DNA of 28,871 nucleotides. It comes from Candidatus Diapherotrites archaeon CG10_big_fil_rev_8_21_14_0_10_31_34 (lineage in GTDB: Archaea > Iainarchaeota > Iainarchaeia > Iainarchaeales > 1-14-0-10-31-34). A program made the position numbers. Where the stretch lies: the NCBI GenBank assembly GCA_002763225.1, contig PFAI01000015.1, forward strand, positions 886-29,756, read 5' to 3'. Shown here piece after piece: positions 18,001 through 21,000 of the stretch. How positions within the stretch are numbered: position 1 is the stretch's first letter; each line of letters begins with the position of its first letter.

Positions 18001-21000
18001 TTTCTTTTAGCTCTTTTTGCTGTTCTTTATTTATTGAAAAACCTTTAAATTCTGAGTAATGAGGAACTGCTTTTGCAACTAAATGATTTGCATAAGGAAA
18101 ATCAAAAAACTTTTTTCCTTCAATTAAATAATAATCTGCAATAAGAAGTTTTTTTATCCCGCTTAAAACATCTAATTTAGTTATTGCAATTTCAGTAAAA
18201 CCATTTAACCTATTTGACATGCGGAGCATTGGTAAATCCAGCCAGCCAACTCTTCTTGCTCTTCCGGTTGTAGTCCCAAACTCATTTCCTGCGTTTCTTA
18301 AAAAATCTGCTTCTTCCCCTGAAATTTCTGTCGGAAAAGGGCCTGAACCAACTCTAGTAGTATAAGCTTTAACTATTCCAATAATTCTTTCAGAAATTTT
18401 TTGAGGGGAAATCCCTATTCCTGTTGTTGCCGCACCAGAAGTCGGATGAGAAGAAGTAACAAAAGGATAGGTTCCAAAATCATTGTCTAACAAAGTTCCT
18501 TGAGCACCTTCAAACAAAACTTTTTTTCCTTTATCCAAACATTCATTGACTTCAAGTGAAACATCAGTTAACATTTCCTTGAATTCTTTTCCTAAAGCAG
18601 AATATTGTTTGAAAACTTCTTCTTGGGTGAAATCAAAATGTTTGTTTAAAATTTTTTCACACACATTTTTATAATAAGGATAATTAAAATCAAGTTTTTC
18701 TTTTAACCTTTTTTCATCAACTAAATCATCAAACCTAATTCCAATTCTTGATGCCCTGTCAGCATAGCATGGACCGACTCCTCTTCTGGTTGTTCCAATA
18801 TTTTTTTCTTTTAAAGCTTCTTCTTTCCCAATATCAATCACATTATGCCAGGGCATAATTATCTGGCATCTTGGGTCAATGCCCAAATTTACTTTAATTC
18901 CTTTTTCTTTTAATCCATCTATTTCCTGTTTTAAAACTCTTGGATCCAATGAAACCCCTGTTCCAATCAAAGAACGTTTTTTTCTTACAACCCCTGAAGG
19001 AAGCAAATGCAGTTTGAATACTTTATCTTTTACTACCACAGTATGCCCTGCGTTATTTCCCCCTTGGTATCTTACAACATAATCAGATTGTTCAGCTAAA
19101 CAATCAACTAATTTGCCTTTTCCTTCATCCCCAAACTGGGAGCCAATAACCATAGTTGAACTCATAACCTTCAAAATAAGGTGAGAAGAATTTAAAAAAA
19201 GAATGAGGCTGGCGGGGTTTGAACCCGCGACACCACGGTCTTCAGCCGTGTGCTCTCCAAAGCCTATCATGAGCTAATAAAAAAAATATTCCTCTGTGAT
19301 ATCAGACTGAGCTACAGCCTCAAGATATTAATAAATAGGGTGTGCAAGTGTTTTAAATTTATTTGTTGTCATCAACGAAACCATTTTATTAAGACGCCAT
19401 TGTTTCACTGGGTGAATAAACAATATTTCATTATTAAGTTTTTCAATATCTTTGTGTCTTTCTATTTGAATATAGCTAGACTGTTTACCCAAATCAAAAT
19501 AAGGCCCATTTACACTAATATTAAAAACCTCCTGCAAAATTTCTTTCATTGATTTTATAAAATTGTGTGATTTCATTCTAAGCTTTATTCTTGGTTGAGA
19601 GTTTAATCCTCTTTCAACGGCCCTCGTATCTCCATCTGCATCAAAAACTCCTCGTATAAACCATTTCTTAATTTCCGGAAAAGAATTTTCAATCAAAATA
19701 GGAACTTTTAAAGTCTCATATTTTTTGCCTGAAGGAACCCCAAAAACTTCGGTTAAAAAACGGTAAATTACTTTGTTTGTTGGGTTTAGATAATAAAGCT
19801 GTTCTCCTTTTTGTATTCTTTCAGTTCTAATTGGAAACACTGCACCAAATAACTCATAAAACAATTTTTTTATTTTTTTAATTTGTTCTAAAAATTCATC
19901 TCCAACAATAATTTTGTGTTCAAACCTTCTGGTTTTTAAGTAAGTTTTTTTAATGTCTTTTAAACCACCATCCCCTAAAAAATAACCAACAAAATAAGCT
20001 AATTTTGGGTTAAGTTTTTTTGGCAAATTTATTGGTTTAGCCCCTTTTGCTTTCACAAATTTAAAATTGGAATAAATTTTTTTAGTGTTTTTAAGTAAGA
20101 AATCAGAGTCTATGACAAAAAATTGACCTTCTGAAAAACATTTCAGATAAGAAGCTTTTTCATCAATTTCTTCAATATATAAATCAGGCAAATAATTTGG
20201 AAGATTGGTTGCGGGTGCGTTTTTGATTTTAATTTCTTTAAGCTGTTCTTTTAGAATTTTTCCATATTTGGTTTTTAAAAATAAATTAGTCGACATCACA
20301 AATTTTTGTTTTTTCTATTTAAAAACAAAAACTAGACACAGCTCTGCCGATGAAAAAAATGTAGCAAGGCAGTACTATCGAGCAAAGCGAAGATAGTACA
20401 CTCCACAGCCGCGAGTTGCGGCTAACGAGCCCAAGGGGATTCGAACCCCTGACATCCAGCTTAAGAGGCTGGCGCTCTACCGACTGAGCTATGGGCCCAA
20501 CAACTTTAAAAAAAGTTGTACAAAAAAACAAGGCTTACTTTAAAATTAAACTGCAAAAGTTTTAAGAACAAAATGAGGTTTAAGACAGCATCATCGAACC
20601 AAAGCGAAGATGATGCATCGTGCTTAAACGGCGAAACGTTTACGAGTCCGAAGGGATTCGAACCCTCGACACCCGGCTTAAAAGGCCGGTGCTCTACCGA
20701 CTGAGCTACGGACCCAAAACTTTTAAAAAAAGTTGTGGTAAAAAACATTTTGTATTAAAAAAATATTACTTCAATAAAAATATAAATGTGCTTTAGAAGC
20801 AGTAAAAGAATTAAGTAAAAAAAGTTATATTAAACTTTCTTTTTTGGTTTTAGTTCCTTTAAACCAAGCATATAAGGCCAAAGTGCTTTAGGGATTTTTA
20901 CTGTGCCTTGTTTTGTCTGAAAATTTTCTAAAATTAAACGCAACATTCTTGCAGTAGCAACCATAGTATTATTTAATGTGTGAACCAATTTCTTTTCTTT

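Follow-up and report, generated by a model that had tools for sequence, protein, structure and literature searches.

The window, a 28,871-nt stretch of DNA from Candidatus Diapherotrites archaeon CG10_big_fil_rev_8_21_14_0_10_31_34 (genome G000), holds a tRNA-Lys(CUU) gene, a free-standing LAGLIDADG endonuclease gene (here HE-A), and a tRNA-Phe(GAA) gene, all on the minus strand (positions count from the first letter of the window). HE-A (19328..20296), called from its Pfam match and fold, is an open reading frame (ORF) of 322 codons from its ATG, with an alternative in-frame GTG start at 20299. Its TAA lies 6 nt upstream of the tRNA-Phe gene (118 nt; 19204..19321) and 25 nt upstream of a 44-nt intron in the D-loop of that tRNA (19259..19302, minus strand). 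The initial annotation had placed a LAGLIDADG gene directly 5' of, and co-oriented with, tRNA-Phe, as we find; it had also reported a D-loop intron of ~45 nt, which is present but is 44 nt long.

HE-A matched LAGLIDADG_3 above the Pfam cut-off (E value, 1.5e-7). Motif 1 (LAYFVGYFLGDGGL; 19961..20002, minus strand; consensus, LAYFxGxFxGDGG) carries the acidic residue D108, and motif 2 (WFIRGVFDADGD; 19628..19663, minus strand; consensus, WFxRGxFDxDG) carries the acidic residue D220; the motif 1 consensus residues, D108 among them, and, in motif 2, W211, F212, R214, G215, F217, D218, D220, and G221 were invariant in 8/8 aligned orthologues. The AlphaFold model (pLDDT, 79.5; pTM, 0.82) has two alpha-beta-beta-alpha-beta-beta-alpha domains, like solved members of the family. 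It was matched by Foldseek to the intein endonucleases TliVMA and PI-PfuI and to I-DmoI and I-Tsp061I (E values, 1.9e-10 to 1e-5; TM score on the target, 0.70 to 0.73 for the last two), and sequence matches in the PDB were weak (E values, 0.01 to 0.1). From sequence and model, HE-A is a two-motif monomeric LAGLIDADG endonuclease of the I-DmoI type, with predicted cleavage activity. A TATA-like box (TTTAAATA; 20316..20323, minus strand), 20 nt before the ATG, is presumably its own promoter and would yield a leaderless mRNA, a reading for which we take the archaeal promoter consensus as the basis.

The unspliced tRNA-Phe gene received no ARAGORN call at the locus, and Rfam returned just a weak tmRNA-clan match (19201-19321). 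When the D-loop segment was excised, ARAGORN called tRNA-Phe(GAA). Neither program alone finds this tRNA-Phe, and tRNAs were instead sought with an excise-and-rescan script, used for presence, strand, and ends only because its isotype labels are unreliable for intron-bearing tRNAs; tRNA-Leu(UAG) on contig C42 of the same genome, for instance, was mostly labelled Pro or Lys. Exon 1 (19303..19321, minus strand) comprises the acceptor 5' strand, the D-stem 5' strand, and the first 6 nt of the D-loop, and is identical to nucleotides 1 to 19 of tRNA-Phe in the same-genus genome G015, where the gene is intronless; exon 2 (19204..19258, minus strand) was delimited by excision and by comparison with G015. 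This is the sole tRNA-Phe found in G000 (one pattern match, and no other). A TATA-like box, TTTAAAA (19351..19357, minus strand), lies 30 nt before the tRNA start within the last HE-A codons and is the putative tRNA promoter; the word TTTAAA stands at a similar distance from tRNA-Phe in alleles without HE-A too.

The intron sits between AGUCUG and GGA and fits a strict hBHBh' bulge-helix-bulge (BHB) structure, with 3/3 pairs in h, 4/4 in H, bulges UGA and UUG, and 5 bp in h'; the outer helix forms only if the D-stem 3' strand is shifted in register. When its positions were fixed by rule, the strict BHB fitted 20/20 homologous introns, in which h' and H show compensatory changes. Splicing as predicted would give the D-loop AGUCUGGGA, the same as that (AGTCTGGGA) of the intronless tRNA-Phe of G015, and a candidate splicing endonuclease is present in G000 as a 178-aa frame with a tRNA_int_endo domain (C6:1245-1505). 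Homologous introns are 32 to 45 nt long, too small to encode anything, and their sequences cluster by family. The D-loop intron is, on its sequence, an ordinary BHB intron at an unusual site, with splicing predicted.

Comparison with same-genus alleles delimits a cassette of 1,103 nt (19322..20424, minus strand) between tRNA-Lys(CUU) and tRNA-Phe. The tRNA-Lys gene (20425..20499, minus strand; tRNA scan and Rfam) is a conserved left neighbor that also occurs in the same-genus genomes G015 and G013. There, the site is empty: tRNA-Lys is followed by a short spacer (43 nt in G015, 92 nt in G013) and an intronless tRNA-Phe whose D-loop matches the product expected from splicing, with neither ORF nor intron. 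The difference between G000 and the empty alleles is a single contiguous block up to the tRNA-Phe edge; the last 43 nt before tRNA-Phe are unlike between G000 and G015 (585/2,000 shuffles reached the score), whereas the spacers of G015 and G013 resemble each other (0/2,000 shuffles). X2 contigs, from another sequencing run, span exon 2, the intron, the ORF, and tRNA-Lys, which rules out a misassembly confined to a single sample. Across contigs of four other sequencing runs, the strain showed no allele without the cassette. Loose contig ends at 19258 come from intronless tRNA-Phe genes of other organisms, and a joint of 19884 to 20603 in other-run contigs (depth, 2; side, 20) looks spurious. 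We rejected an integrase-type element, given an insert of only one ORF (about 0.9 to 1.1 kb), and an ORF within a giant tRNA intron, given that the tRNAs downstream of the ORFs are complete; HE-A itself is wholly upstream of tRNA position 1, with a complete acceptor stem downstream, and is not arranged as an ORF inside an intron (as in I-DmoI).

Orthologues of HE-A occur in 11 of 196 genomes, in six families and in a minority of each family; the 10 outside G000 share 45 to 73% identity with it, and 4/11 orthologues contain in-frame stops. A profile of the orthologue alignment searched across GTDB genomes returned seven loci, all in the same order, and the search for orthologues in viral contigs found no locus. 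The D-loop intron was found in 20/196 genomes in a census by tRNA-Phe patterns, which misses genes with changed D-arm words; an anticodon-arm pattern gave a tRNA-Phe candidate in just 149/196 genomes. Pattern matches in G007, G051, G117, and G127 were dropped as false.

Gene and intron keep company. In 10 of 11 cases, the tRNA-Phe that an orthologue abuts carries the intron, at an unchanged position, and a LAGLIDADG ORF or its remnant lies upstream in 16/20 genomes with the intron; these counts overstate the evidence because relatives are not independent. The 20 intron genomes divide into 10 with HE-A (in-frame stops in 4 of the 10), 2 with a second LAGLIDADG lineage, 4 with HE-A remnants (the last 12 to 49 codons, before the intron-bearing tRNA-Phe of G096, G076, G107, and G062), 3 with no endonuclease trace upstream (G016, G059, and G065), and 1 cut by a contig end. 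Of the tRNA-Phe loci that lack the intron and have 1.5 kb of flanking sequence, none has a LAGLIDADG ORF (0/13). Matches at several loci to the first 20 to 45 residues of the G060 frame were discarded as tRNA-Lys read-through rather than endonuclease remnants. Joint gain or loss of gene and intron has its exceptions in the three traceless genomes and in G162 and G018. An intact HE-A orthologue in G162 precedes a tRNA-Phe without the D-loop intron, whose D-arm is a rare variant (GCTT/AAGC stem; loop 1 nt shorter), and in G018 a second-lineage ORF, also intact, likewise precedes a tRNA-Phe without the intron. The G011 ORF, which stands next to an uninterrupted D-arm of consensus type, has lost its motif 1. 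Wherever a LAGLIDADG ORF upstream of tRNA-Phe looks intact, the D-arm that it faces is interrupted or atypical.

Docking on tRNA genes extends far beyond this locus. In an order-wide scan, the 3' end of the ORF abuts or overlaps a tRNA gene in 60/65 scorable relatives, 42 of them co-oriented at the tRNA 5' end and 18 convergent at the tRNA 3' end; among random frames of at least 250 aa from G000, put through the same tRNA scan, 1/60 had a tRNA at the 3' end. Each LAGLIDADG lineage has one tRNA isoacceptor as its docking partner. Among tRNAs docked by other lineages, about half are without an intron (27/60 detected intact), so docking needs no intron. Four of the six free-standing LAGLIDADG ORFs of G000 are docked: besides HE-A, the C47 frame (17393-18220) ends 15 nt inside tRNA-Leu(GAG) (17321-17407), the C42 frame (793-1926) ends 46 nt inside tRNA-Leu(UAG) (719-838), and the end of the C53 gene (11411-11758, minus strand) is 1 nt away from the tRNA-Val(UAC) 3' terminus, the two genes being on opposite strands. 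The initial annotation had recognized docking at three genes, all of which we recover, and the rule, which spans 60 loci, is far more general than those three; the 15-nt overlap on C47 was as it had described, and that on C42 is 46 nt rather than 45. An empty site for the Leu(GAG)-linked gene in the same genus, also proposed there, is real, with an insertion boundary ~56 nt upstream of the tRNA and not at the tRNA edge. As far as our searches show, the literature searched contains no description of such a family-wide docking rule.

We regard HE-A as probably a mobile, free-standing homing-endonuclease cassette with which the intron moves as one block, by collaborative homing or by hitch-hiking. 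A mobile homing endonuclease had been suggested in the initial annotation, together with the link of the gene with the D-loop intron and the existence of introns without it; the last two hold in the genome census above, and the suggestion of mobility is upheld in part, by geometry, patchiness, empty sites, decay, and the intron link but sits less well with the Leu(GAG) boundary off the tRNA edge and with the intronless tRNA-Phe genes of G162 and G018. HE-A belongs to a large radiation of LAGLIDADG genes in this archaeal order. We infer cleavage, target, direction of transfer, and immunity as follows. The splicing endonuclease of the cell would remove the D-loop intron from tRNA-Phe. At the DNA level, the intron would be inherited and transferred as one block with HE-A, 25 bp apart: the enzyme would cut an allele without the cassette, and repair from the cassette-bearing allele would copy the gene, exon 1, and the intron (co-conversion). 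The D-arm may serve as a natural inverted repeat with the intron insertion point near its center, and the intron would either interrupt the target of the enzyme in this palindromic D-arm, protecting its own allele (collaborative homing), or merely ride along. After fixation, the endonuclease gene would decay and the intron would persist.

The second of these options, hitch-hiking only, is a sub-case of the same explanation where mobility is concerned and rivals only its protective version. The endonuclease would home to the border of the tRNA or to the spacer upstream of it, a site that its own insertion would destroy, and a non-protective intron would have been spread or retained merely because it is 25 bp away within the conversion tract. 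The cassette extends to the tRNA edge at the Phe locus, both docking modes would read into the same acceptor-stem sequence, as fits a target at the tRNA edge, and the intron is dispensable for docking in about half of the cases in other lineages and for the intact ORFs of G162 and G018. Upstream spacers, however, are not conserved between genomes, so a spacer target could not serve transfer between families. The sole ORF beside a consensus uninterrupted D-arm (G011) is defective, the D-arm of G162 is a rare variant, and the same intron is found with three LAGLIDADG lineages, all of which argue against a passive intron; we consider this option rather unlikely.

Old vertical inheritance, with gene and intron present in the common ancestor of several families and lost many times, would explain the linkage by descent without ongoing homing. 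The locus is syntenic, with the seryl-tRNA synthetase gene (SerRS) within 1 to 6 kb in G014, G160, G110, and G103; the introns group by family; and the identity of HE-A orthologues to G000 (49 to 73%) tracks SerRS identity (43 to 71%) in most genomes. Some pairs break this pattern: the two copies in family f13 share 53% identity in the endonuclease versus 72% in SerRS, and G160 and G162 share 68% versus 42%. The gene trees (neighbor joining, 100 bootstraps, Biopython), which are weak, with deep-node support of 10 to 54%, are not simply congruent. Descent alone would require ORF and intron to have been lost together, and precisely, by most members of eight families and also inside one genus (G015 and G013 versus G000, G014, and G012), and a single deletion cannot take out both, since exon 1 separates them. 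Seven intact ORFs with invariant active-site residues, in families sharing just ~55% SerRS identity, would be hard to maintain for a selfish gene without transfer. We hold purely vertical descent to be unlikely.

That these LAGLIDADG proteins have ceased to be mobile nucleases and now work for the host at its tRNA genes, in a regulatory role for instance, is highly improbable: the bacterial WhiA is an example of such a domesticated LAGLIDADG-type regulator and stands at rank 46 of the HE-A fold matches (Foldseek), docking is family-wide, and the tRNA TATA-like box lies inside the ORF end, but both catalytic acidic residues are invariant, any given lineage is absent from most genomes (HE-A from all but 11/196), pseudogenes and remnants are common, and same-genus genomes manage without the gene.

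The mobile cassette that we favor shares traits with several known systems. I-DmoI and I-Tsp061I are archaeal LAGLIDADG endonucleases encoded by BHB introns of rRNA genes, with the ORF inside the intron; HE-A shares with them the monomeric two-motif fold, the archaeal host, and a BHB intron in a stable-RNA gene but has its ORF outside the tRNA gene. Similar tRNA introns in Thermoproteales have reportedly spread by transposition between different tRNA genes of one genome. That case and ours both concern intron gain at non-canonical places in archaeal tRNAs; in ours, a single intron recurs from genome to genome at a single position of a single tRNA, with an endonuclease gene next to it.

A closer parallel is F-CphI of cyanophage S-PM2, a free-standing endonuclease beside the intron-containing psbA, which acts by collaborative homing: the intron blocks cleavage of its own allele, and the enzyme confers mobility on the intron (PMC6083498). 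The mobE gene and nrdB intron of phage T4 are reported as a related case (PMC2790892). As in F-CphI/psbA, a free-standing endonuclease gene adjoins an intron-bearing gene, the intron itself encoding no endonuclease, and endonuclease gene and intron are jointly present or absent. HE-A differs in that its host is an archaeal chromosome and not a phage, the interrupted gene is a tRNA gene, the intron is a protein-spliced BHB intron of 44 nt and not a self-splicing group I intron, and the protein is of the LAGLIDADG family, with cleavage and protection predicted. T4 SegB, likewise a free-standing homing endonuclease encoded among tRNA genes, drives preferred inheritance of the tRNA region and its flanks (PMC2330249); it is a GIY-YIG enzyme in a phage setting, with neither an intron nor a family-wide rule of ORF-end docking. 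Sugahara et al. (2012) treat disruption of tRNA genes by integrating elements and cite Randau and Soll, who proposed that an intron shields a tRNA gene against integration (PMC3293823). These models share with ours tRNA genes as targets of mobile DNA and an intron gained with the element in a short time span that protects the target site. They invoke plasmid or viral integrases with their att sites, whereas HE-A is a single-ORF cassette without integrase, for which the proposed motor is double-strand-break repair.

For the gain of archaeal tRNA introns outside the canonical anticodon-loop position, the published ideas are integrating plasmids or viruses and intron transposition. HE-A and its 44-nt intron offer a specific and testable pair that appears and disappears jointly at one tRNA-Phe locus, with natural empty alleles in the same genus, and this joint presence and absence points to a DNA-level route by which such introns could spread. 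A wider reading is possible, which we put forward tentatively and with less than even confidence: tRNA genes may be the homing sites of the whole LAGLIDADG radiation, BHB introns in unusual places may arise and spread as protective interruptions of target sites, and the endonuclease may be the DNA-level motor of non-canonical tRNA intron gain that later decays and leaves an orphan intron. Natural meganucleases specific for tRNA genes might also be drawn from the docked family. The docking rule itself, with its own isoacceptor for each lineage, defines a new niche of homing endonucleases in cellular chromosomes.

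The locus lies on the minus strand and comprises, in gene order, tRNA-Lys(UUU) (20642-20716), tRNA-Lys(CUU) (20425-20499), a 125-nt spacer (20300-20424), the LAGLIDADG endonuclease ORF HE-A (19328-20296), tRNA-Phe(GAA) (19204-19321), and the adenylosuccinate synthetase gene (mechanical ORF, 17864-19270). The initial annotation had placed HE-A directly 5' of tRNA-Phe and co-oriented with it, and the gap measures 6 nt. This tRNA-Phe, the only one found in the source genome G000 (1.04 Mb; 81% complete), was not called by ARAGORN or Rfam; it was found after excision of a D-loop segment, which leaves a normal tRNA. 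The spacer has two clear hairpins (GCCGC..GCGGC and AGTGTACTATC..GATAGTACT) and no counterpart in empty alleles (those without the endonuclease cassette); it may belong to the cassette as its 5' portion or act as a tRNA-Lys terminator. A TTTAAATA word 20 nt upstream of the HE-A ATG suggests transcription of the gene from a promoter of its own, as a leaderless mRNA, and a TTTAAAA word within its last codons, 30 nt ahead of tRNA-Phe, may be the tRNA promoter. The adenylosuccinate synthetase ORF extends back across tRNA-Phe exon 2; translation probably begins at the ATG within MSSTMVIGSQFGDEGKGK near 19167, and the listed N-terminal extension would therefore be spurious.

The HE-A protein matched Pfam LAGLIDADG_3, and its AlphaFold model (pLDDT, 79.5) resembles archaeal intein endonucleases, I-DmoI, and I-Tsp061I. 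Across eight aligned orthologues (mean column identity, 51%), neither motif varies, D108 and D220 included. Residues 1 to ~90 are variable and were modelled poorly.

Relatives were sought in 196 genomes of the order Iainarchaeales (E up to 1e-5) and were present in 122. Docking (an ORF 3' end abutting or overlapping a tRNA gene) was scored in 30 loci returned by the search (one dropped because tblastn did not find it again, one at a contig end) and in 40 hand-picked further rows, namely 20 consecutive rows without a locus and 20 weaker ones from varied genera (losses: one without a tblastn hit, one ORF running off its contig, and one without flank). The scan placed a tRNA gene at the ORF 3' end in 60 of 65 scorable loci, compared with 1/60 random ORF ends in the control. 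Docking was co-oriented at the tRNA 5' end in 42 loci, the tRNA starting between 99 nt inside the ORF and 63 nt past it, and convergent at the tRNA 3' end in 18. One further docked locus, the 61st (L006, genome G159), adjoins a tRNA-Phe interrupted at three places and recognised by eye only; the scan returned nothing at three loci and just 8 weak hits at one. Docked tRNAs include Phe, Leu, Arg, Thr, Lys, Gln, Ser, Gly, and Val. Several docked ORFs stop at U8-A9-G10 of the tRNA; at loci L005, L007, L010, L011, and L015, this near-universal triplet doubles as the TAG stop. In either mode, the ORF enters acceptor-stem sequence from outside, a hint that the tRNA end may matter.

Within G000, four of six free-standing LAGLIDADG ORFs are docked. 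The fourth (contig C53, 11411-11758, minus strand; L159) is truncated by a contig end. Its stop and the 3' end of tRNA-Val(UAC), encoded on the opposite strand, are 1 nt apart, an example of the convergent mode, which the initial annotation did not list. Many further LAGLIDADG_3 matches lie within long open frames (514-1697 aa) on contigs C25, C35, C55, C51, C15, C52, C3, C13, C41, and C22; these are probably inteins of housekeeping genes, so the LAGLIDADG load would be unusual for a small genome. Our literature searches, which did not extend to subscription journals, turned up neither an account of archaeal tRNA genes with docked LAGLIDADG genes nor one of a tRNA intron of the bulge-helix-bulge type linked to an adjacent endonuclease gene.

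The tRNA-Phe D-loop intron, previously put at ~45 nt, is 44 nt long (19259-19302), lies between AGUCUG and GGA, and matches the strict bulge-helix-bulge motif provided that the register of the D-stem 3' strand shifts by two (outer helix CUC/GAG; central helix AGUC/GGCU; inner helix, 5 bp; 3-nt bulges UGA and UUG). With both bulges cut behind their second nucleotide, the predicted D-loop is AGUCUGGGA, identical to that of the intronless tRNA-Phe of same-genus genome G015. This positional rule holds for 20/20 homologous introns of other genomes (32 to 45 nt), with many compensatory changes in the inner helix and one in the central helix (AGUC/GACU, G160). G000 has one splicing-endonuclease gene (178-aa frame); no RNA run contains the tRNA-Phe locus, and splicing is predicted from sequence. 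A contig from another groundwater run (X2) has the same order of ORF, intron, and tRNA with 2 nt fewer in the intron T-run (19279), an intron-loop length polymorphism. Some tRNA-Phe genes have several interruptions: G159 (L006) in the acceptor stem, D-loop, and anticodon loop, and G012 (L122) and G018 (L121) with an extra anticodon-stem insert besides the canonical one.

Eleven genomes from 6 families have a close HE-A orthologue (E up to 1e-30); 4 of these copies contain in-frame stops, and 10 of the 11 adjoin a tRNA-Phe with a D-loop intron at the identical position. G162 has an intact copy ahead of a tRNA-Phe without this intron, whose D-arm is atypical (GCUU/AAGC stem, loop shorter by one nucleotide). 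Pattern searches and inspection, with four false matches removed, found the intron in 20/196 genomes (8 families). Upstream of the intron-bearing tRNA-Phe lie HE-A in 10 genomes, a second LAGLIDADG lineage in 2 (G012 and G019), remnants of the last 12 to 49 codons in 4 (the conserved HPxKxWRL region still discernible in G096 and G076), no trace in 3, and a contig end in 1. A third lineage precedes a second intron-bearing copy in G046. No LAGLIDADG ORF was found upstream of intronless tRNA-Phe at 13 loci having 1.5 kb of flank. The initial annotation had noted G011 and G018 as having another LAGLIDADG ORF before a tRNA-Phe with an intact D-arm; both indeed lack the D-loop intron and carry the second lineage, intact in G018 (D-loop AGUUCGGGA), but the G011 example (consensus D-arm) is qualified by an ORF from which motif 1 is missing. 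The G046 bin has intron-bearing tRNA-Phe on three contigs (C34, C61, and C92; L131, L138, and L065) with two intron variants, HE-A on one contig and a different LAGLIDADG gene on another beside SerRS, and looks like strain heterogeneity.

The congeneric genomes G015 and G013 have empty alleles, which comprise tRNA-Lys(CUU), a spacer of 43 or 92 nt, and tRNA-Phe without intron. Their spacers resemble each other (0/2000 shuffles attain the score) but not the 43 nt immediately preceding the tRNA in G000 (585/2000). What separates a filled from an empty allele is therefore a single block that begins at the edge of tRNA-Lys, takes in the ORF and exon 1 (19 nt), and closes with the end of the intron. 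G015 is also empty at tRNA-Leu(GAG), as reported earlier for a cassette of ~0.9 kb; the insert is 890 nt and stops ~56 nt upstream of the tRNA, and the ORF continues through the conserved promoter region into it. The tRNA-Leu(GAG) genes with this ORF (L157 in G000 and L162 in G014) both have C in the D-loop and GACUUAGUGUC as the variable-arm pair; in the empty G015 allele (L161) these are U and GGCUUAGUGCC, and G012, where the ORF is absent, likewise has the GACUUAGUGUC form.

The D-loop intron would travel and persist with the endonuclease cassette as a linked block, and may merely hitch-hike with it. That it shields the carrier allele from the neighbouring endonuclease, the protection by which PMC6083498 defines collaborative homing, is possible but less likely than not. 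The endonuclease gene may also be of old descent, because its identity to G000 (49 to 73%) is close to that of SerRS (43 to 71%). Against this stand two discordant pairs, two genomes of family f13 (53% endonuclease versus 72% SerRS) and G160/G162 (68% versus 42%), and the clustering of f13 endonucleases with that of an f12 genome, in neighbour-joining trees that are weak and of few taxa. That a single genus contains filled, empty, decayed, and lineage-swapped alleles argues for repeated allele replacement at the tRNA-Phe locus. We conclude that HE-A is a putative free-standing homing-endonuclease cassette, one of a family that lives at the ends of tRNA genes.
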